From positions 3,928-38,752 of the forward strand of contig CAZNDY010000003.1 in the NCBI GenBank assembly GCA_964572055.1: a stretch of DNA of 34,825 bases. Reading direction: 5' to 3'. Shown here one piece after another: positions 10,428-30,643 of this stretch (position 1 is the stretch's first letter; each line of letters opens with the position of its first letter). A program made the position numbers and the translations under genes. Under the pieces are notes generated by a model. It had not been told where the DNA came from, searched no databases, and saw only the letters and a program-made list of their open reading frames with translations. Source of the DNA: an uncultured Gammaproteobacteria bacterium. Lineage in GTDB: Bacteria; Patescibacteriota; Patescibacteriia; Patescibacteriales; UBA12465.

Positions 10428-10498
10428 TCGGGGATCGTCTAATGGTAGGACAACAGGTTCTGGTCCTGTTTATCTGGGTTCGAATCCTAGTCCCCGAG
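10428..10498 (+). tRNA. tRNA-Gln (anticodon CTG), CCA not encoded
   Basis: Acceptor TCGGGGA/TCCCCGA, D-arm GTC-TAATGGTAG-GAC, anticodon arm ACAGG-TTCTGGT-CCTGT, T-arm CTGGG-TTCGAAT-CCTAG, discriminator G. Confidence 0.97.
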
Positions 10499-10499
10499 C
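10480..10499 (+). repeat. putative attL (3' end of tRNA-Gln)
   Basis: TCGAATCCTAGTCCCCGAGC, matched by 28565-28584. Confidence 0.65.
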
Positions 10500-16493: not shown

Positions 16494-17186
16494 ATGAATC
16501 CTGGATATATTGGATTGATCGAATCTATTTTAAAGAGCAAAAAACTCGAAGATTTTATAGGTGTTGAAGAGAGCCTTGAATTTGAGGTCAAAAACAGTAG
16601 TCCTTATGATTTTTCTTCGCCAGGAGATAGATATGAATTGGCAAAAGATGTCTCTTCTTTGGCTAATAGTAAGGGTGGTTATATCATTATTGGACTTAAA
16701 ACCGATCCGTTACAAGAGAGAAAATCTGATATTGTTTCTGAATTAGATCTAATTAAAAAAGAAGATTTTAATTCAGCTATTTATTCTGGAGTTATTAAAG
16801 ATAATATTTTTCCCAATATTGAAAAGATTGATGTTGGCTGGGTGGAAGATGATAGTAAGACTGGCTTTGGCATTGGGTATATTTATATACCGATACAAAA
16901 TGATAATAAAAAATATTTTATTACAAAGAATATAATAGAAGATAATGAAAAAATAAAAAATATAGTTTTTGGTGTATCCGAAAGAAAGGATGGGGATAGC
17001 ATCCCGTTAAATGAAGATAAAATTTACAAGACCTTACAAAGCGGGAAAAGCTCAGTTTCCGAAAGACTAACATCCATAGAAGGGAGTATTAATAAACTAT
17101 TTAGTTTGATTTTAAAAAAAGATAAAAACAAAAAATTAAATAATTTTGATAAAGATATCGAAAATAAAATAAAAAATATTTTATGA
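16494..17186 (+). CDS. Schlafen/AlbA_2-domain protein
   Basis: ESLEFEVK, ELAKDVSSLANSKGGYIIIG; coiled-coil-like tail. Confidence 0.85.
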   Translation: MNPGYIGLIESILKSKKLEDFIGVEESLEFEVKNSSPYDFSSPGDRYELAKDVSSLANSKGGYIIIGLKTDPLQERKSDIVSELDLIKKEDFNSAIYSGVIKDNIFPNIEKIDVGWVEDDSKTGFGIGYIYIPIQNDNKKYFITKNIIEDNEKIKNIVFGVSERKDGDSIPLNEDKIYKTLQSGKSSVSERLTSIEGSINKLFSLILKKDKNKKLNNFDKDIENKIKNIL

Positions 17187-17896
17187 ATATAAAAGAGCCA
17201 CTATATATAATAATCGCTAAACCTTTAGATGATTGTAAAATAAATAATTTTTTTTCTGCAGATGTTGGAGGCGCAAAACATTTATTAGAGCATCCTGGTG
17301 GATTAAGATATGCTGGATGGGATTTAGAAACTTTAGATAATGCTAGGTTGATTAAGGGGGAATATTATGAAGTAGTAAATGGAGATAGAAAAAAAATTCG
17401 TCTGTACGAAGATGGGGTATTAATTATGAAAGTGAGCGCAAATCAAAATTTTTTAGGATGGGGCAGAAATCCAGATAATTTTTTAAATAGCCCAAGATTG
17501 AATCCCATTGCCTTAATAGAGGTTACTTATAATTTTGTTTATTTCTATTCAAGGCTAATTAGTTTTTTTGATAATGATCCAAAGAGTATAAAATTTGTAA
17601 TTCAATTTAGAGATACTTTTTTGTCAGAAAATAAAAAATTGTATTTAAATCCATATGGAAATGATAGTTTAAATTTTGCCTTTGATGATTATCCTCAAGA
17701 ATCACCAGAGAATTTTATGGAAAAAGATGCTTTATTTTCAAGTCAAGAAATTATAAGCAATAATGCTAGATGTTCTTATGAGTTGATAAAGAAAATTTAT
17801 AATTGGTTTGGCATTACTGATGAAAAAATTCCATTAGTGATAAAGGATGATGGCGGCCTTGATGTTATAGATATTGAAAAGATAAAAAAGATGTAA
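17183..17896 (+). CDS. hypothetical protein translationally coupled to the AlbA_2 gene
   Basis: ATGA overlap with the upstream stop; LRYAGWD motif; shared terminator downstream. Confidence 0.75.
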   Translation: MNIKEPLYIIIAKPLDDCKINNFFSADVGGAKHLLEHPGGLRYAGWDLETLDNARLIKGEYYEVVNGDRKKIRLYEDGVLIMKVSANQNFLGWGRNPDNFLNSPRLNPIALIEVTYNFVYFYSRLISFFDNDPKSIKFVIQFRDTFLSENKKLYLNPYGNDSLNFAFDDYPQESPENFMEKDALFSSQEIISNNARCSYELIKKIYNWFGITDEKIPLVIKDDGGLDVIDIEKIKKM

Positions 17897-17924
17897 ATAA
17901 TGGTAAAGTTTTGATAACATTTAG

Positions 17925-17950
17925 AAAGGCGAGGATCTCCTCGCTTTTTT
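17925..17950 (+). terminator. intrinsic terminator
   Basis: AAAGGCGAGG-ATCT-CCTCGCTTTT followed by T's. Confidence 0.8.
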
Positions 17951-17978
17951 GTTGTAGATAAGTTGTTGGTAATTTTGC

Positions 17979-18007
17979 TTTACTTTTATGTCTTTTTAAG
18001 CTATATT
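17979..18007 (+). promoter_or_regulatory. sigma70-type promoter driving the structured RNA
   Basis: TTTACT-N17-TATATT; the predicted start (~18012-18014) coincides with the first stem. Confidence 0.55.
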
Positions 18008-18011
18008 TATA

Positions 18012-18167
18012 GTGCAAAACTACATTTATATATACGTGAGGATTGAGCCATTTTTTTGGTTTATTTTTTCCTATTCATGCACAGGAACGGACACTTCGAC
18101 CAGCATGAGTAGGATCCTCACGGATACCCAAAATGTAGTTTTGCAACTAGGTCGGGTGTCCGTTTTT
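18012..18167 (+). ncRNA. structured RNA / regulatory leader, C4/CI antisense-RNA-like architecture
   Basis: Nested stems 18013-27/18131-45 (15 bp perfect), 18035-43/18114-22 (9 bp) and 18070-80/18103-13 (11 bp). Loop 18086-18101 is complementary to 18150-18164, which is followed by a T run. Confidence 0.7.
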
Positions 18168-18210
18168 GTTAAATTATATTAATTTTAATTTATATATAAT
18201 TATTAAGATT

Positions 18211-18807
18211 ATGAAAAATAAAATTATAAGAAATATTTTTTTTATTATTTTTTCAGCAATCGTTATATTAGTAAGTTTTATTATTGGCAATCTTTTAGGT
18301 GGCTTTGTCGGTGGTGCTTTGGGTTCTTTGTTGGCAGTAATTTATATTGAATATCGCTTATCCAAAAAAAATATTAGTCTGATAAGAATTAACTTAAATA
18401 AGAAAGATTATACACTTATTATTGTTGTCTTTTTGGTAGTTACAATTATTTGTTCTGTATTATATTTTGTTTCCAATAGAGACAGCAAAAAAGAAGAAGA
18501 GGATATTTATGTTAAAAGCCCTGGAAAAGAAATTAAAGAAGAGTTAGATTTTTCTGTAGTTGATGTGGGGCGTTTTTATGACGGCCTGGATGGTTTTTCA
18601 ATTTCTATTCCGTCTGGAAATATTTCTGTTTGTGTCTGGACTTATAATGCTGGTAGTGGTGTTATTCCAAATCTAATTACGACAGAGGCAAGAACTGCGA
18701 CAGAAAAGCATACCATTTCTGTTTATGGAGATGAAGGAGATTTAAAGGTGTTCTGTGTTGACGATTTTGGTGATAAATATATTGGTGTATTTCCAGAAAA
18801 TAATTAA
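18211..18807 (+). CDS. hypothetical membrane protein (about 3 TM plus C-terminal soluble domain)
   Basis: ORF with hydrophobic segments; ATG 18211 preferred over TTG 18166. Confidence 0.7.
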   Translation: MKNKIIRNIFFIIFSAIVILVSFIIGNLLGGFVGGALGSLLAVIYIEYRLSKKNISLIRINLNKKDYTLIIVVFLVVTIICSVLYFVSNRDSKKEEEDIYVKSPGKEIKEELDFSVVDVGRFYDGLDGFSISIPSGNISVCVWTYNAGSGVIPNLITTEARTATEKHTISVYGDEGDLKVFCVDDFGDKYIGVFPENN

Positions 18808-18817
18808 TATAAAAAAT

Positions 18818-19450
18818 ATGAAGAAAAATTTTAAAATGTTTGCAATATCCATAATTTCAATTTTAGGTATTTCAATATTGTTATTTAAAATTTTTAATAG
18901 CCTAGAAACACATTTTTTATTTAATAAAAGCAATAATGAAGAAGATGTAATAATAGAGAAAAAAATTATCATGGAGCAAATAGAAGTAGCAACTTTTTCT
19001 AATAATGAAAAAATATTGGCTTATAGAAAAAATAAAGTTGGGGATATTGTTTACGCCGAAGTGCTTACTATTGATTTAATAACAGGAGAGGAAAAAACGT
19101 ATGTAAAAGAAATATCATCTATAAACCCAGAAGGAGTTTATATTATTAAAGACGTTTTTCTTTTAAAAGATGAAAAACATATTTTAGTTTTAGATAGTTT
19201 TTCTTCTTATCGCACTGGCGATCTTTATTTAATTGATCTAGAAAGTGGTGATATGAAACCCATAAATGATGGGAATGATCCAAAATTAATAAAAGAAGGA
19301 AAATATAAGGACTATCTGCTTCTTCAAAAACATGCTTATGAAGCTATACCAACTTTTGATTATTATGTGATAATTAATCCTTTAACAGGTGAAGAGATTG
19401 AAAATTTAGGAGACAACATAGATAACTTTGATTTTTTAAATATAAAATAA
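18818..19450 (+). CDS. hypothetical membrane-anchored/secreted protein, beta-propeller-like
   Basis: N-terminal signal/anchor; repeated TIDLITGE / LIDLESGD / IINPLTGE blade-like motifs. ATG 18818 preferred. Confidence 0.65.
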   Translation: MKKNFKMFAISIISILGISILLFKIFNSLETHFLFNKSNNEEDVIIEKKIIMEQIEVATFSNNEKILAYRKNKVGDIVYAEVLTIDLITGEEKTYVKEISSINPEGVYIIKDVFLLKDEKHILVLDSFSSYRTGDLYLIDLESGDMKPINDGNDPKLIKEGKYKDYLLLQKHAYEAIPTFDYYVIINPLTGEEIENLGDNIDNFDFLNIK

Positions 19451-19454
19451 TTTT

Positions 19455-20219
19455 ATGAGCAATTTAAAAGAAATAATTTCAAAAAATTATAAACTAAAAT
19501 TTCCCGCTTTAATGTATAATGTTTTAAAATGGGAAAAAGAGAGAGTTGATAAAAATTTTACCAAAGGTTCTTACTTTGAAGACATCAATGATAAATTTGG
19601 AATTTTTCCAAAAACTAAACTATATCCAATGTATTTTTATGGCAATATTGAAAATCCTAAAAATAAATATGTTTTTGTTGGTATAAATCCTAGTTATACT
19701 GGCGGACTAGAAGAAAACGAATATTTAGAAGAAAAAGAATCAGTTGCTAAATACTACCACTTTCTAAAAAACGCTTTTATTTGGTGGAATATTAAACTTG
19801 ATCACAAGTTTCTTCCTTATTTTAATAAAATTTCTTTATATCTAAGTGAAACAGAGAATATAAAAAGAGAAGAGATTAGTTATAAATGGTTACAAGAAAA
19901 TGTTATTAATTTAGAATTAATTCCTTATCACTCTAAAAGTGCTGATGGTTTGTTGGTTAATAATATTGAAGAATATTATCAAACATATTTTGAATTATTT
20001 AGAAAAGCCATAAAACATATTAACCCTAATAAAAAAATAGTTTTTTTTGGTTCGTCTAGTTTTGAAAACATATTTGTTGATAATAATATTTTTAACAAAG
20101 ACATTATTATTGAAAAAAACAACAGTATCTATTCTGGAAAAATATTTGGTAAATATGATTTTATAGTCTTACCCTTTAGATTTTCCAAAAATATTTTATC
20201 AAATCAGGGCAGAGATTAG
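19455..20219 (+). CDS. uracil-DNA-glycosylase-superfamily protein (Brig1-like, putative anti-phage)
   Basis: PMYFYGN...YVFVGINPS and LELIPYHSK motifs; IVFFG. Confidence 0.55.
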   Translation: MSNLKEIISKNYKLKFPALMYNVLKWEKERVDKNFTKGSYFEDINDKFGIFPKTKLYPMYFYGNIENPKNKYVFVGINPSYTGGLEENEYLEEKESVAKYYHFLKNAFIWWNIKLDHKFLPYFNKISLYLSETENIKREEISYKWLQENVINLELIPYHSKSADGLLVNNIEEYYQTYFELFRKAIKHINPNKKIVFFGSSSFENIFVDNNIFNKDIIIEKNNSIYSGKIFGKYDFIVLPFRFSKNILSNQGRD

Positions 20220-20236: not shown

Positions 20237-21373
20237 TTATTTCTCTCTTAGTATTCTTTTAATTTCTTCCAATGCATCGATAGGTTTGTTTTTTTCATAA
20301 ATATTTTTTTCTTGATTTAGTTTTCTTAATTCATCAGCTTTTTTTTCTTCTAAAATTTTAGATTCCTCACATTCTTTATTTCTTTTTTCAGCTTCTCTCA
20401 CGATATCACTTAGATAATAAATTGCAGATGATCCTGGTAATTCTTTGCTAGATTCATAATTGTGAATATCTTTATTTATAGATTCAATTTTTCTATTACT
20501 AAAACCAACTCGTCCATCTTTAGTTTTTAGTAAATATTCTTGTAGATAAGTATCTTTAGGTATATTTTTTATTGTATCACTAACAATATCTTCATTCTTA
20601 AATTTTTCTGACCATAAAACTTTATCGTTACTATCAAATAATGGGTATAGTTTAAAAACTCCTTTTATTCTTTCTTCTAAAATATCTTTCATTAAATTAA
20701 ATAATATAGAGCTTGTAGAAATAGGGGTTCCTAATACTATTATTTTAGTATTAAAATCACCGCAGGATAAAACGTCTTCTTTGAACCATTCATATTTTGT
20801 GTTATTTTTTCCCCTAGAGTAGGTAACAAATTTGTTCTCTAGGTCATCACAGATAATTAAATCTGGTCTTTTACTTTTATATCTCAATCCTCTCAGAGAT
20901 TGTTCGGTTATGGCAATTATTATTTTAGCTTCAAGCTTTTCAAATTCTATCATGGTTAAGTTTTTGGTCAGTTTTCTTTCATTAATCAAATCAAAGTCAT
21001 TTATTAATAATTCGTTTTCTCTTAATTCTTCAATGATATTTTTTATTTGGGTTTTAGCTTGAAATATTGATTGGCTAATTATGAGAACAAACTTTTTTTG
21101 AGGTTTGCCCAATATTGACCACAGAGCCATTGATAGATTCAGGATTGTTGATTTTCCAGCCCCACGAAAAGCACTAATGACAACTAAGTTTATTTCAGGA
21201 TGTTCAGATAGTCCAAACATTTGTTTATGAAACCAAGAAAAAGGATATTCCATGTAATGGTTTAAATATAATCTAAAAAACCATTCATGACTTTGATAAG
21301 CCAGTGCTTGTCTAAAAGTTTTACTATTTTTGCATTCTTTAATTATTTTATTTAATTCATTATTTTTTTTCAT
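20237..21373 (-). CDS. terminase large-subunit-like ATPase, no C-terminal nuclease domain
   Basis: WFHKQM, Walker A AFRGAGKST, LRGLR..RPDLIICDDLE (Walker B), IVLGTP, YLQEYL; then a charged helical tail. Confidence 0.8.
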   Translation of the reverse strand: MKKNNELNKIIKECKNSKTFRQALAYQSHEWFFRLYLNHYMEYPFSWFHKQMFGLSEHPEINLVVISAFRGAGKSTILNLSMALWSILGKPQKKFVLIISQSIFQAKTQIKNIIEELRENELLINDFDLINERKLTKNLTMIEFEKLEAKIIIAITEQSLRGLRYKSKRPDLIICDDLENKFVTYSRGKNNTKYEWFKEDVLSCGDFNTKIIVLGTPISTSSILFNLMKDILEERIKGVFKLYPLFDSNDKVLWSEKFKNEDIVSDTIKNIPKDTYLQEYLLKTKDGRVGFSNRKIESINKDIHNYESSKELPGSSAIYYLSDIVREAEKRNKECEESKILEEKKADELRKLNQEKNIYEKNKPIDALEEIKRILREK

Positions 21374-22520: not shown

Positions 22521-23792
22521 TTATTTATTTAAAAGTACTGCTTTTGCGCCAGTTAACTTTTCAAATCTATTAATTATTAGTTGGCAAAATATCGGGCTTT
22601 GTTCAATTAAATAAGCCCTTCTTTTTAATTGCTCACAAGCAATCAGAGTTGATCCAGAGCCACCAAATAAGTCTAGTATAATGTCATTGACCTTTGAACA
22701 TCTTCTTAGGGCTTTCTCGTGAAGTACCGGAGGTTTAGATGTTGGGTGTTCATAATCTTGTCCTGGCATTCGTTTAACCAGCCAAATATCTAGTATATCT
22801 AAGATATCTTCAATAGCTCTATTACCAGTTCCTATTTCTTTATTTAAAAGTTCATTTAAATTTTGAGCAGGGGACAAGTAAGGCGAACCAACAGTTCCAT
22901 AAACACATGGTTCATAGCATTTATTAAAAGCTATTTTAGGTGTTGGATTAAAACCATTTTTAATCCATAAACAAACTCTTTGATTGTTTATTTTTAGATC
23001 AGAGTAAATGCTTTGTAGTAGGCCAATATATTTTTGGTCGCAGTAATAAAAGAAGTGAGAATCGGTCATACTGACCGATAAAGCATTTTTAATAGTTTGT
23101 TCTAAAAATATTTTATAATCTTTATAACTTTTTTTGTCATTAACTTTTCCTCCATAGTTTTGTTTATTTCCAAGACCTTTATTGTAATCCAGTGATATAT
23201 TATATGGAGGGTCGCAATATATCATTCTACCTTTATTATCTCCCATTAATTTTTTAACAGAAGATTCTTTAGTAGAATCAGCACATAATAAGCGGTGATT
23301 TCCTAGAGAAAATAAATCCCCACTTTTTATATTAGTTTCTTTTATCTTTTCTAATTCCTTTTCTTCTTCAAAATTATCATCTTCAATTTCTAAAACATCA
23401 TCCCAAATATCATTTAATTCTGTATCACTAAAACCAACATCAAGCAGTAAGCTGGAGTCAAATTCTCTAAGTAGGTAAAAATCCCATGATCCAGTGTTTT
23501 TATTGAGTCTTAAATTAAGCTCTCGTTCTTTTTCTTTATTTAAGTCTAAAAACACCACAGGCACCTCTTTATAGCCTAATTTTTTAGCTATTTTTAATCT
23601 TTGATGACCGCCAATAACTATATTTTGTCTGTCTTTATTAGAATTAACCAAAATAGGATCAACCAAACCAAAGCTTTTAATGCTTTCAGTTAAATCAGCT
23701 TCTTGCTTACTGTCTAACTTTCTTGGGTTATATTCAGCCATTCTTAGCAAATCTACATTTATTTCAACGATTTTTAAATTGTTACTTAACAT
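22521..23792 (-). CDS. ParB/Srx-domain fused beta-class DNA (adenine) methyltransferase
   Basis: AEYNPRK, FGLVDPILVN, IGGHQR (ParB-like); LGNHRLLCAD, CDPPYN, HPTSKP, DLFGGSGST. ATG 23792 preferred over TTG 23837, which lies in a hairpin. Confidence 0.92.
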   Translation of the reverse strand: MLSNNLKIVEINVDLLRMAEYNPRKLDSKQEADLTESIKSFGLVDPILVNSNKDRQNIVIGGHQRLKIAKKLGYKEVPVVFLDLNKEKERELNLRLNKNTGSWDFYLLREFDSSLLLDVGFSDTELNDIWDDVLEIEDDNFEEEKELEKIKETNIKSGDLFSLGNHRLLCADSTKESSVKKLMGDNKGRMIYCDPPYNISLDYNKGLGNKQNYGGKVNDKKSYKDYKIFLEQTIKNALSVSMTDSHFFYYCDQKYIGLLQSIYSDLKINNQRVCLWIKNGFNPTPKIAFNKCYEPCVYGTVGSPYLSPAQNLNELLNKEIGTGNRAIEDILDILDIWLVKRMPGQDYEHPTSKPPVLHEKALRRCSKVNDIILDLFGGSGSTLIACEQLKRRAYLIEQSPIFCQLIINRFEKLTGAKAVLLNK

Positions 23793-23821
23793 AAAATTAT
23801 ATTTAATTATAAAATTAGTTA

Positions 23822-23857
23822 AATAATAAAAAATCAACGTTTTTAACGTTGATTTTT
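23822..23857 (-). terminator. intrinsic terminator/attenuator in the leader of the methylase operon
   Basis: Minus strand AAAAATCAACGTT-AAA-AACGTTGATTTTTTATTATTT, about 30 nt upstream of ATG 23792. Confidence 0.65.
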
Positions 23858-23937
23858 AGTGTTTTTTGTACAAAAAAAGACAAATAAGCATTAAAATATA
23901 TGCGCTAAAAGCGAAGATATCTCAATTCAAATTCGTC

Positions 23938-24109
23938 TGTACATCTATGGTAAATGTACACTCGTGTATCTAGCTGAGCAGCTGACGACAATTTTGGCAC
24001 CTTTTATTAGCTACAACCCTTTTATTACAATAGAGGGCGAAACTATGGGTCTAATACGGTTGCATGAGTGTATTTATTTATTAATTAACTTAAGTCTTTC
24101 AACTTATCT
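23938..24109 (-). ncRNA. structured 5' leader, candidate SAM-I-like riboswitch variant
   Basis: Closing stem TACACTCATG/CACGAGTGTA; GCAACC-(GTATTAG...CTAATA)-AAAGGTGCCAA; AGCT hairpin then AGAT; lies between a promoter and a terminator. Confidence 0.45.
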
Positions 24110-24115
24110 AATAAC

Positions 24116-24144
24116 ATTATAGCATATTTAAACATATATTTCAA
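24116..24144 (-). promoter_or_regulatory. strong sigma70-type promoter of the methylase-terminase operon leader
   Basis: Minus strand TTGAAA-N17-TATAAT with an extended TG motif. Confidence 0.75.
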
Positions 24145-24209
24145 GGATTTTTTTGACTAAAATGTGTAAAATAGGTTGAAAAAAACTGGACAGTTTAGCT
24201 ATAATTATC

Positions 24210-24238
24210 TTGAAGCCATGTATTTTTAGTGGTAAAAT
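24210..24238 (+). promoter_or_regulatory. sigma70-type promoter of the HEPN gene (divergent)
   Basis: TTGAAG-N17-TAAAAT with TG; a second candidate TTGAAA-N18-TATAAT at 24176-24205. Confidence 0.55.
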
Positions 24239-24258
24239 GAAGGTGTAATATAAAATTT

Positions 24259-26037
24259 ATGTCTGATAGAAACATATACATTTCTCAATACTTCAAAAAT
24301 GTATTTAATTCAAATATAATCGATTCTTTTAGACCTAGATACTCTAACGTACATATTATATTGGAAGAACTTTTGGATACGTGCAAATTAGTTGAAAAAA
24401 ACATTATATCTAACTATTATTTACCTAAAATTATTGAGGAGGCGATTATCCTTATTAACGACGACGTAATTTTAAACCAAGATAAAAATATAAAAAGAAG
24501 AAATTTTTTATTGAAAAAATTGAGTTTGACCGGAAAAAAGATTGGAGAAATAGATTGTTTTATTCAATTTTTAAAATTAGAATTGGTTTTCATGAGAAAA
24601 AAATATCTCAATTCTCTTAAAGAAGAAATTTTTGCAATTAGTGATAAGAGAAAAAAAGTTGATAAGTATCCAAAACAAAAGATTAGGAGATTGTTGGGCT
24701 CTTTTATTAGTGAATGTATGTTCGTTGGGGTTTCCTTTAAATCTTTAAAAAAATTAGGATCACTAAAAAAAGAATATTCAAGAACAGATATAAAGAAAAT
24801 AATAGATAAAATATTAAGTAAAAAATCATTTAATTTTTATTTATTATTATTTGGTGTTGATAATAGTGCAATTGATTTTTTTGTAAAAACATTTAAGAAC
24901 ACTAAAGATAAGTCATTTTTGGTTCATAAAAAATGGCCAACAAAAATTATTCCAAAAGCTTTTAAATCAGAAATGAGTAGAAGAAAATATGTTGTTTTTG
25001 AAATTAAAAAACGGAAATTTTTGGATTGTTATGGAGGATTATTGGAAATCAGAACAGCCCTAGAACCAATAGTTAATATTGTTCATATATTCTATCCAGG
25101 AAAACAATTATATTTTTTTAATAAAGGTTTTATAATGGATTATTCTTCAAACAAGAAATCATCAACAATTAACTATATTGATGTTGTAAATTATAGATGT
25201 GTTAACAATGAAACAGTCGATGAAAAAATATTTTCTTGTTTTAATTTACCAGAAGAAATACAAAACAAGTTGTTTAATTCAGCCTCTTACTTAAATATTA
25301 GTTTAAATGAATTTAATATAATAAACAAATATTTAAATGCTTGGGTTTCTATCGAAATTATTTTTAATACTGTTAAGAATGACAGTGGAGATGAGAATGG
25401 AAAAACAGTTGGTTATATTAATGAGTTTGTCCCAAAAATTTTTAGTATTTTTTATGTATCGAAAATAATTAAATTTTTATTTCAGAGAGTTTTGAGTTTG
25501 AAATTAGATATTAATGAAAAGTTTATTATTAACAACAAACATGATGTTATTGTTTTTTTGGAATATTTAAAAAAAGAAGAAAATAAAGCTATTTTGTTTA
25601 ATAGACTGGTTGGAGAAGAAGAATTGCGCGAGACTTTGTTTTATTTTGTTGATATAATATTTGATAATAAAAAACTTTCTAAACTATTAGAAAAACATAA
25701 AGAAAAAATATTGTTTCATTTACAGAGGTTGTATCGGTTGCGCAACATTTTAATTCATGGAGGAGAAAAAAACATTAAAGCGGATGGTCTATATAATATT
25801 TCTTCGATTGCTATGTTGTGTACCAATTGTCAAGAATATTCAACACAGCTTATAAGTTATATTTCCGAAATTTATATTAATTTGCCAGAAAAATATGAAC
25901 GAGATAAATTAACCATGTTCAATATCTTAAATCTTTTTTCGGTGTTATATGATAAAATTGTATACAAATTAGATAAAGATGACTTTGATTTTAATGAATT
26001 AAAAAAAATGTTTTCACCAATTGATTTTATAGAATAA
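24259..26037 (+). CDS. ApeA-like HEPN-domain protein (putative RNase effector)
   Basis: C-terminal KYLNAWVSIE helix and LYRLRNILIHGG (RxxxxH). Confidence 0.7.
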   Translation: MSDRNIYISQYFKNVFNSNIIDSFRPRYSNVHIILEELLDTCKLVEKNIISNYYLPKIIEEAIILINDDVILNQDKNIKRRNFLLKKLSLTGKKIGEIDCFIQFLKLELVFMRKKYLNSLKEEIFAISDKRKKVDKYPKQKIRRLLGSFISECMFVGVSFKSLKKLGSLKKEYSRTDIKKIIDKILSKKSFNFYLLLFGVDNSAIDFFVKTFKNTKDKSFLVHKKWPTKIIPKAFKSEMSRRKYVVFEIKKRKFLDCYGGLLEIRTALEPIVNIVHIFYPGKQLYFFNKGFIMDYSSNKKSSTINYIDVVNYRCVNNETVDEKIFSCFNLPEEIQNKLFNSASYLNISLNEFNIINKYLNAWVSIEIIFNTVKNDSGDENGKTVGYINEFVPKIFSIFYVSKIIKFLFQRVLSLKLDINEKFIINNKHDVIVFLEYLKKEENKAILFNRLVGEEELRETLFYFVDIIFDNKKLSKLLEKHKEKILFHLQRLYRLRNILIHGGEKNIKADGLYNISSIAMLCTNCQEYSTQLISYISEIYINLPEKYERDKLTMFNILNLFSVLYDKIVYKLDKDDFDFNELKKMFSPIDFIE

Positions 26038-29444: not shown

Positions 29445-30643
29445 ATGAATCAAATAAATAAATTTTATCTAGCTTCTTTTTTGAAAAATCAAATTTATTT
29501 TGTTCCGATTATGATTTTGTTTTTTCAGGATATTGGCTTGAATTATGCTAATATATTCTGGATTTTTACTATTGCCTCTGTTTTCTCATTTATTATCGAA
29601 ATTCCAACGGGTGTGTTTGCGGATAAGTATGGAAATAGAAAAAGTATTATATTGTCTAAATTTTTAATATTCGCAAGTTTTATAATTTTTGGTTTTGCCA
29701 ATAGCTTTATTGTTTTGCTTGTTGCTAATTTAATATACGAGCTTGGTAAAAGTTTTCGTTCGGGCACAGAAACAGCTTTTATTTTTAATTATTTATCTCA
29801 AGATAAAAATCATCCCAGTTATACTAAAATAAAAATTAATCAAAAGTTTTATGCGCGTATTTCAGAGAGTGCATCCGCTTTAATTGGTGGCTTTATTGCT
29901 TATCGCCTGGGATTTAATATTGTTTTTTTATTGCTGCTATTCCAGCTTTAATAAACTTTATTCAGACTTTAAGTTGGGAAAAAATTAAGACTGACGAAGA
30001 AAATAAAGAAAATGAAATTAGCCTAAGGGAAAATTGGGAGTTTATAAAAATTGCTTTTTCAGAAATAAAAAACAATAAAACAGTACTTAATATAATTTTA
30101 AATATTGCCTTTTTCTCTGCTTCTTTTTCTGCTTTGGAAAAATTTGTTCAACCTTATATGAAAAATTCTGGTATTGAACTTCAATACTTCGGTATTTTTT
30201 ATTCAGTTTTTTTAATAATCATTGCTTTGATAGTTAAAGCAATTTCTCGCCTGGAGGATAAATGGAGCGCAAAAAAAATTATGAATTATTCTGGTTTTAT
30301 TGCTTTTCTAGCTCTTATCCCTCTTGGCTTGGGTGGAAATTCGGTTCTGATGGTTGGTTTGTTTTTTATAGTCCTTTTGCTTGAAAATTTTAGATCACCA
30401 GTTGCCAATAATTTATTTCATGAACAAGTGCCAAATCAAAAAAGAGCAACTATGGGTTCAATTTTGGAGTTATTTAAATCTTTGAATAAGTTATGGATAT
30501 TGCCATTTATTGGTTATGTTGCTGATATTTATTCAATGAAAACGGCTATTTTAATTATTTCTATTTTAATTTTAATTAGTGCTTTTGTTTTTTTAATTCC
30601 AGACAAAAAGAAGAGAGGTGAAAAAATTTTGGAAACCAACTAG
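29445..30643 (+). pseudogene. MFS transporter with a frameshift in a T homopolymer
   Basis: EIPTGVFADKYGNRKS and FRSGT..A motifs. Adding one T to the T7 run at 29923-29929 reads VFFIAAIPALINF... continuously into ORF 30134..30643. Confidence 0.85.

Follow-up and report, generated by a model that had tools for sequence, protein, structure and literature searches.

A putative termination/antitermination leader ahead of a DNA methylase/terminase operon in a small Patescibacteria-labelled genome

The late cassette of lambdoid phages consists of the PR' promoter, a short '6S' leader RNA and the tR' terminator, and depends on antitermination by Q; its late genes are expressed only once termination has been overcome. 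In the BglG/LicT systems, a ribonucleic antiterminator (RAT) hairpin is bound by an RNA-binding antiterminator, and HK022 put is a cis-acting antitermination RNA. In type III toxin-antitoxin systems (ToxIN-like), a promoter is followed by a repeated antitoxin RNA, a terminator and the toxin gene. The abstract of PMC4914094 names lambda Q and N as antiterminators. Here we describe a leader of about 315 nt on the minus strand of a 34,825-nt stretch of contig CAZNDY010000003.1 (assembly GCA_964572055.1; hereafter the window), which lies in the gene-free DNA 23793-24258 between two divergent genes and precedes an operon for two DNA methylases and terminase subunits. An earlier note, made from the letters of the window, had proposed a reduced or novel attenuator with an S-adenosylmethionine (SAM)-sensing core of the SAM-I type. 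We propose instead that the leader probably, though by no means certainly, acts as a termination/antitermination gate controlling the methylase/terminase operon on a compact island in a bacterium of the candidate phyla radiation (CPR).

The closest working analogy appears to be the lambdoid PR'-leader-tR' cassette. As in that cassette, a strong promoter, a leader RNA and an intrinsic terminator stand before late or packaging genes, and all of these parts are present in the window. Unlike that cassette, the locus has no Q-like gene upstream, where the neighbor is divergent and unrelated (592 aa in the window, 111 aa in relatives); its leader is about 315 nt long and carries two putative terminators, T1 and T2; the first genes of the operon encode DNA methylases; the element lacks structural genes; and the host is a CPR bacterium. 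The resemblance to RAT and put lies in a small conserved hairpin, H3, which is set against the 5' arm of T1 and whose predicted extension could not coexist with the base of the terminator stem; the part corresponding to a binding site plus terminator is also the conserved part of the window leader. However, the leader has no sequence or Rfam similarity to these elements, and a second terminator is not covered by that mechanism. By analogy, an H3 stabilized by a RAT-type protein, or a put-type RNA, are possible routes for the suppression of termination. With type III toxin-antitoxin loci the window shares an RNA, a terminator and a protein gene in one transcription unit, but its leader has no direct repeats (0 families in 23793-24160, with only an AT-only low-complexity row at 23791-23831), and the gene downstream encodes a DNA methylase, not an endoribonuclease. 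The leader belongs to no RNA family; its kind is classical, that of a terminator-gated operon leader, represented by four sequences of related strains. A narrow literature search found no description of it, and we make no claim that it is unpublished.

Layout and conservation of the leader

The RNA is predicted to start near 24109, downstream of an extended -10 promoter whose position was given correctly in the earlier note (Table 1). Promoter-like matches as a class are not enriched (12 in the AT-rich stretch, against 14.2 ± 4.3 in shuffled sequences), and the credit of this promoter therefore rests on its conservation and on its form. Its hexamers and TG are unchanged in all four aligned sequences, with the surrounding spacer differing at 18% of positions, and TGnTAnAAT is the usual promoter form upstream of open reading frames (ORFs) in this genome.

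The whole leader folds better than shuffled sequences (z -4.1; z -4.6 for the version in the relative L144), and the signal was traced to four hairpins, namely the 5' hairpin, H3, T1 and T2. The GAAA-tetraloop hairpin, the hairpin competing with the closing stem (H3) and the terminator about 30 nt before the ATG (T2) were all recovered as the earlier note had described them; T1, a second terminator-like hairpin, had been overlooked. The 5'-side A-run of T2 makes it terminator-like on both strands. In the minimum free energy (MFE) fold, the linker at 24070-24090 pairs with 23829-23817 in a predicted all-A-U helix, which never varies. The ATG at 23792 lies about 30 nt after the T2 U-run, and a promoter scan found no minus-strand promoter of at least 9/12 between T2 and the ATG, where a separate promoter would, by the earlier note, have counted against its reading; a bare TATAAT at 23811-23806 may be a weak one.

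Table 1. Coordinates of the leader parts, the operon genes and the LOOT RNAs of related loci. MFE and z values refer to predicted hairpins; the last column gives positions that differ between the window and L144.
Feature	Coordinates	Strand	Details	Differences
Spacer upstream of RNA start				26/147
Promoter: -35 TTGAAA 24144-24139, 17-nt spacer, extended -10 TGcTATAAT 24124-24116	24116-24144	-	11/12 with TG	
5' hairpin, GAAA tetraloop, 6 bp	24091-24106	-	MFE -3.4 kcal/mol, z -4.05	2/41 (with linker)
AU-rich linker, near-invariant	24070-24090	-		2/41 (with 5' hairpin)
Variable core	23978-24069	-	better-kept sub-block 24049-24015	5/20, 4/35, 21/37 (parts 1, 2, 3)
Conserved 3' block (H3, T1, T2, linkers)	23807-23977	-	7/171 differ from L145	6/171
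H3, 9 bp, 3-nt loop, abutting T1 5' arm	23939-23959	-	MFE -6.2, z -4.70	
T1, terminator-like: 61-nt imperfect hairpin 23938-23878, then U7 (23878-23872)	23872-23938	-	MFE -19.0, z -4.02	
T2: 12-13-bp hairpin 23857-23829 and U-run	23821-23857	-	match of both-strand scan; MFE -11.9, z -4.48	
AT-only spacer, T2 to ATG	23793-23820	-	no Shine-Dalgarno; TATAAT without TG at 23811-23806	
Last 16 nt before ATG				7/16
ParB-N-domain/N6_N4 DNA methyltransferase fusion, 423 aa, first operon gene	22521-23792	-	Pfam PF01555 (2.2e-29), PF02195 (4.5e-12); phrog_498 (2e-97)	
Second DNA methyltransferase, 254 aa	21752-22516	-	PF01555 (3.9e-28); phrog_498	
Small terminase-like helix-turn-helix protein, 131 aa	21360-21755	-	PF13022 (2e-8); small terminase PHROGs, e.g. 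phrog_309 (4e-10)	
Large-terminase-like ORF, 378 aa, truncated	20237-21373	-	phrog_38 (2.8e-39)	
LOOT RNA, locus L050	4920-5043	-		
LOOT RNA, locus L079	2089-2204	-		
LOOT RNA, locus L026	5734-5855	-		
LOOT RNA, locus L163	5150-5260	-		

A metagenome scan gave 244 relatives of the methylase. Among the 80 best, which were retained, L143, L144 and L145 (methylase protein identities of 95, 91 and 90%, respectively) carry the same leader, and together with the window they make up a family of four sequences among 219 loci, searched with nhmmer and a four-sequence profile; the same search of the genome added none. A single-leader nhmmer search of 92 loci gave no match, and no similar upstream region was found in 80 species-genome, 12 viral-contig and 19 related-genome loci. 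In an all-against-all blastn comparison of upstream regions, that of the window matched none. DNA searches with the leader found no match in a phage collection; the genome itself and 60 relatives gave nothing beyond short AT-rich matches, which left 24074-23898 of the window uncovered. A 20-mer from the invariant block had 0 matches in viral contigs.

The methylase gene differs from that of the window by 6.4% (L143), 13.3% (L144) and 15.1% (L145); at third codon positions the figure is 27-32% for the latter two. From L144 there are 169 differences, which fall 40, 13 and 116 on the three codon positions; by this pattern the gene is under purifying selection, and the operon must therefore be expressed somehow. 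The leader core diverges about as fast as synonymous sites. For the 3' block, the binomial probability of six or fewer differences in 171 positions is 2e-5 at the whole-gene rate of 13%. The alignment thus points to the core as the fastest-evolving part of the leader and to the terminator region as the most constrained. Contigs from other public DNA runs, read in the parts that they cover, match this pattern of conservation.

The few substitutions in the hairpins largely respect the predicted pairs. All nine pairs of H3 are invariant, and the sole change is from C to U in its loop. At the base of T1, two one-sided stem changes keep pairing (A-U to G.U and G.U to A-U), and the other changes lie in an internal loop. 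In T2, the pair 23846:23840 is U-A in the window, C-G in L143 and U.G in L144 and L145. In the 5' hairpin, the pair that closes the loop, 24101:24096, is U.G in the window, U-A in L143 and C-G in L144 and L145, and contigs of other sequencing runs show the same variants at this pair. Folds of truncated RNAs predicted an extension of H3, in which 23990-23987 pairs with 23937-23934, a helix that would be in competition with the T1 base; L144 and L145 have C-G in place of U-A at one of its pairs. We regard the modeled helix as a lead for an antiterminator structure.

Two further features of the 3' block were observed. A perfect 16-bp palindrome, TTTTTTGTACAAAAAA, occupies 23877-23862 between T1 and T2 and is invariant in 4/4 sequences; it may be the T1 U-run joined to the A-run of the two-way terminator T2, or else a protein site. 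A five-codon frame at 23944-23927 on the minus strand (AUG UAC AGA CGA AUU UGA) runs from the 3' arm of H3 to the 5' arm of T1 and stays open in L144 and L145 (AGG CAA). Its translation, a possibility on which we do not build, would melt the base of T1. No small ORF of the leader is conserved among the homologous leaders.

The supposed SAM-I-type core

The case for a SAM-I-clan core had been made from two strings within a closing stem. GCAACC (24063-24058) and GGUGCC (24001-23996) are present, 56 nt apart. The stem is also present, ACACUC (24069-24064) pairing with GAGUGU (23964-23959), with two more pairs past a mismatch. A terminator lies downstream, and N6_N4 methyltransferases, as encoded by the operon, use SAM. 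These are the likenesses to the SAM-I, SAM-IV and SAM-I/IV riboswitches (RF00162 clan), and the assignment failed on the remaining comparisons. A search of the whole window against Rfam at gathering score returned tRNA only and no SAM family. On 601 nt (23700-24300), a permissive search gave 10 matches at E <= 10, none of them SAM-I, SAM-IV or SAM-I/IV and all far below gathering score; in 8 of the 10, only the terminator hairpin is aligned. The comparison of homologous leaders was decisive: the motif was kept in L143 only and reads GUAGCU...AGUUCC in L144 and L145, and such a lack of conservation had been named as refuting by the earlier note itself. The core shows no two-sided changes, and where its helices vary, a C-to-U or A-to-G change has produced a G.U pair; its rate of change is about neutral.

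Folding agrees with this result. The 115-nt stretch 24071-23957, which holds the core and the closing stem, has a z of -0.79, and 41/200 shuffles fold at least as well. Predicted core folds differ between the two haplotypes, and none gives a four-way junction; the leader also lacks the 5' AUC-AGAG, the kink-turn and the pseudoknot, as the earlier note had said. The pattern GCAACC...GGTGC occurs once, against 0 in shuffles; it was chosen after being seen, and the match therefore says nothing about function. The genes downstream encode two DNA methylases and terminase subunits, not SAM or methionine synthesis or transport. To our knowledge, known SAM riboswitches control genes for the supply of SAM and methionine, not DNA methylases. 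On the sequence comparisons, the leader is not a SAM-I-clan riboswitch. A false riboswitch lead is thereby removed, and it would have been a surprising one, with a SAM riboswitch placed ahead of DNA methylases on a phage-like element.

Other explanations of the intergenic DNA were tried and rejected. For a cis-antisense RNA like P1 c4, the complementarity between the variable core and the operon mRNA start does not exceed that of shuffled sequences. For a decayed gene, 84 upstream regions were compared with the intergenic stretch by tblastx, with no convincing match (best E of 0.005, on a tiny database). The pattern GGTTGTAGC-N6-AAGGTGCC had 9 matches in viral contigs, in one unrelated contig family of about 2.8 kb without further similarity.

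Related cassettes, proposed mechanism and alternatives

The ParB-methylase/terminase cassette is widespread in ultra-small CPR bacteria, with relatives in at least 148 species-genome and 244 metagenome-contig loci. A small-terminase homolog follows the ParB-methylase in 153 of the 160 loci with enough downstream sequence, and a separate second methylase is present in 99 of them. The layout upstream was counted in 33 non-redundant loci with a divergent upstream neighbor and a gap of at least 150 nt; since the neighbor is divergent, no upstream gene needs a terminator there. A sense-strand hairpin with a T-run ends 16-87 nt before the ParB-methylase start in 23/33 loci, where gene starts were extrapolated from alignments and may be off by a few codons. 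As an internal control, a hairpin within 100 nt of the start of the divergent gene was found in only 2/33. Many of the hairpins are very stable (-17 to -36 kcal/mol), and several loci carry tandem sets of two or three. Eight of the 23 loci leave at most 30 nt between the hairpin end and the start, too little for a promoter. The window was outside this count, as the neighbor runs off the locus, and would add a positive. The terminator-hairpin layout is general, though the leader sequences are unrelated.

A second cassette of ParB-methylase, methylase and small terminase is present in the same genome (contig 13, locus L129, 1498-3159; 66% identity); no large terminase was detected in it. An extended -10 promoter of its own precedes a leader of about 175 nt, and a hairpin of about 75 nt with U6 ends 23 nt before the ATG. 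The leader of this second cassette has no sequence in common with that of the window. This recurrence suggests that termination/antitermination is a common switch for packaging genes in CPR bacteria, where regulation is barely characterized.

We propose the following mechanism. The strong extended -10 promoter would start an RNA of about 315 nt, composed of the GAAA hairpin, a loosely constrained middle, H3, T1 with its U7, and T2 with its U-run. In the default state, T1 or T2 would end most transcripts; the product would be a short RNA of about 240-290 nt, and little methylase or terminase would be made. Suppression of termination would allow the operon to be expressed; we infer both the termination at T1 and T2 and a regulated read-through. 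Suppression would most plausibly be due to a protein or an RNA polymerase-modifying factor not encoded next to the operon, with a helper phage or the island as candidate sources, and one possible route would be a stabilized H3 whose extension overlaps the base of T1. The fallback of the earlier note, an otherwise regulated attenuator before the methylase-terminase operon, is supported by the conserved promoter, leader and terminators and by the recurrent layout; the SAM-sensing part is dropped.

Several observations count against such a gate. T1 is long, AU-rich and irregular, and was missed by a simple terminator scan because of its irregular loop and bulges. In the covariation test on four sequences (effectively two to three haplotypes), 189/500 shuffles reach the observed score, which is not significant, and a two-sided change occurs at only one pair; the hairpins are supported by energy and conservation, not proven by covariation. 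The H3-extension helix has only 4 bp, and its compensatory change would arise by accident about once in five. The 3' block could be conserved for a role played by the DNA itself. Promoters without a TG or -35 box may function in this organism, so that the TATAAT at 23811-23806 may act as a weak promoter behind the terminators. The large terminase of the window is truncated, and part of the original function of the gate may therefore be gone. None of the neighboring ORFs has a Q-, N-, NusG- or RinA-like match in Pfam or PHROGs, and 36 upstream-neighbor proteins from other cassettes have no homolog in this genome. No RNA sequencing run among the public runs listed carries the region.

The search for a regulator was extended to the island ORFs and the upstream neighbors of other cassettes, and gave no antiterminator candidate in Pfam or PHROGs; a Pfam search near the operon found no CAT-domain or other RNA-binding regulator. 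Neighbor proteins from 100 loci fall into unrelated clusters. With neither the island nor the genome yielding an antiterminator gene, a helper phage may be the source of the factor.

Among the alternatives, a free-standing small RNA of about 240-290 nt, which ends at T1 or T2 and acts in trans or is a stable by-product, is possible but doubtful; the operon would then be served by its own weak promoter or by leakage. A strong promoter leading to two tandem terminators suggests efficient ending, and conserved 5' and 3' hairpins with a variable middle are found in many small RNAs. A weak promoter could be the TATAAT 13 nt before the ATG, in a host with many leaderless or short-leader genes, but this box lacks a TG and a -35 box and reads TATAAA in 3/3 relatives. 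The leader is found only ahead of this operon (in the window and three close relatives among 219 loci, with no further copy in the genome or in 60 relatives), and its variable middle has no more than chance complementarity to the operon mRNA start. Moreover, unrelated leaders have terminators at the same place in 23/33 cassettes, in 8 of them without room for a promoter, which argues for a role in cis. It is clearly unlikely that the conservation of 23977-23807 marks a DNA site, such as an operator for a dimeric regulator on TTTTTTGTACAAAAAA or a site at which the island is packaged or recombines, or that it stems from a recent recombination tract. Loops and linkers are conserved as well as stems, the perfect 16-bp palindrome lies between T1 and T2, the region is at a synteny break at the ATG of the divergent gene, and the island has large serine recombinase and terminase genes. 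However, the few changes in the block lie in loops or keep pairs, all three hairpins fold better than shuffles, and the palindrome may simply be the T1 U-run plus the T2 A-run. Unrelated cassettes have terminator hairpins at the same place and no shared DNA motif, and a recombination tract would poorly explain sharp, more variable flanks in three relatives of differing divergence.

A ligand-sensing riboswitch of a new class, with an aptamer in 24069-23940 that controls T1 through 23990-23987/23937-23934, is very unlikely. The long structured leader followed by terminators would suit it, as would the alternative helix with one compensatory change and the fairly conserved sub-block 24049-24015 (4/35 differ). 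Yet the would-be aptamer is the least conserved part (5/20 and 21/37) and the terminators are near-invariant, the reverse of what is seen in riboswitches; the core folds no better than shuffles, and its predicted fold differs between haplotypes. The family holds only four sequences, all within 90% protein identity of the gene, and homologous operons have unrelated leaders. At gathering score, no Rfam riboswitch was found in 20 related loci, where LOOT was the only Rfam family. A reduced SAM-I-clan riboswitch sensing SAM or S-adenosylhomocysteine (SAH) is scarcely credible, given the missing Rfam matches, the replaced motif and the absent SAM-I elements described above.

Returning to the termination/antitermination gate, a wider proposal can be framed around the 171-nt block, although we consider it rather unlikely. 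The block would be a new cis-acting RNA device of CPR mobile islands that sets read-through of two terminators, either alone, as a polymerase-modifying RNA in the manner of put, or through a protein of a helper phage or the island, and that couples methylases and packaging enzymes to phage infection. Analogous devices of unrelated sequence would occupy the same place in related cassettes. Finding the antiterminating factor would show how islands sense a phage, and the conserved 171-nt block is a defined experimental target.

Two other elements were seen at the related loci. LOOT RNA (RF03000; 71-94 bits, gathering score 46) occurs in 4 of the 20 related loci searched with Rfam, always on the strand opposite the cassette, and in L079 inside the gap upstream of the methylase; the window has none at gathering score. 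A term search of the main text of PMC5737381 found no description of it. In another clade of the cassette, a conserved long hairpin, GCCCACTTCG...CGAAGTGGGC followed by CTTTCTCGTTATTA, adjoins the methylase gene. It lies about 130-200 nt upstream in L035, L043, L047, L061, L064, L069, L085 and L097, and is also present in L167, L180, L188 and L213. Its sequences are 70-87% identical and partly overlap the end of an upstream ORF of about 117 aa.

The host genome and the island

The genome that contains the window, as its contig 3, is 0.88 Mb in size, 30% G+C and 92% complete, and genomes of the order of the host span 0.6-1.4 Mb. Most homologs of the methylase come from genomes labeled Patescibacteria/CPR, and for this reason the host is taken, from genome labels, to be probably a CPR-like ultra-small bacterium. 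Shine-Dalgarno sequences are scarce genome-wide (GGAG, GAGG or AGGA at -20 to -4 in 17/482 long ORFs), and the lack of one before the methylase gene is thus ordinary here. Extended -10 boxes (TGnTAnAAT) peak at exactly 6 nt and at 20-40 nt before start codons; the 6-nt peak points to many leaderless mRNAs. For such a genome, a leader of about 315 nt is unusually long.

Only residues 6-290 of the homologs of the large terminase align to the window ORF (at 21376-20528), followed by about 97 codons without similarity; it was therefore judged truncated. Full-length large terminases of relatives have about 490-520 aa. Five plus-strand genes (16494-20219), one Schlafen/AlbA_2-like and the others without a family, separate the truncated terminase from a large serine recombinase at 16338-14983 and from another methylase on the same strand as the recombinase. 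In relatives, a serine recombinase can adjoin the terminase directly, and the five-gene stretch looks like an insertion that cut the terminase.

The ORF after the large terminase was examined in 14 loci where the end of the terminase lies inside the locus. The largest such ORF is convergent in 11 and co-oriented in 3. In the 10 of these 14 loci scanned with Pfam, all 3 co-oriented ORFs are serine recombinases, the 7 convergent ones have unrelated or no families, and no portal match was found. A plain decaying prophage was rejected on these counts, and the cassette probably sits on a compact mobile island.

The divergent upstream gene is a plus-strand ORF of 592 aa starting at 24259, with no family match in Pfam or PHROGs. 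Homology with the three close relatives spans the whole intergenic region and ends at the ATG of this gene (24259-24261), so that a recombination or insertion junction sits at that start codon; in L143 and L144 the divergent gene is a 111-aa membrane-like ORF (1197-1532), likewise without a family match.

Elsewhere in the window, a tRNA-Gln is at 10428-10499. Two neighboring short plus-strand ORFs, 29445-29951 and 30134-30643 (168 and 169 aa), each have a match to the MFS_1 transporter profile over its N-terminal half, and the pair (29445-30643) may be a duplicated or broken transporter gene.

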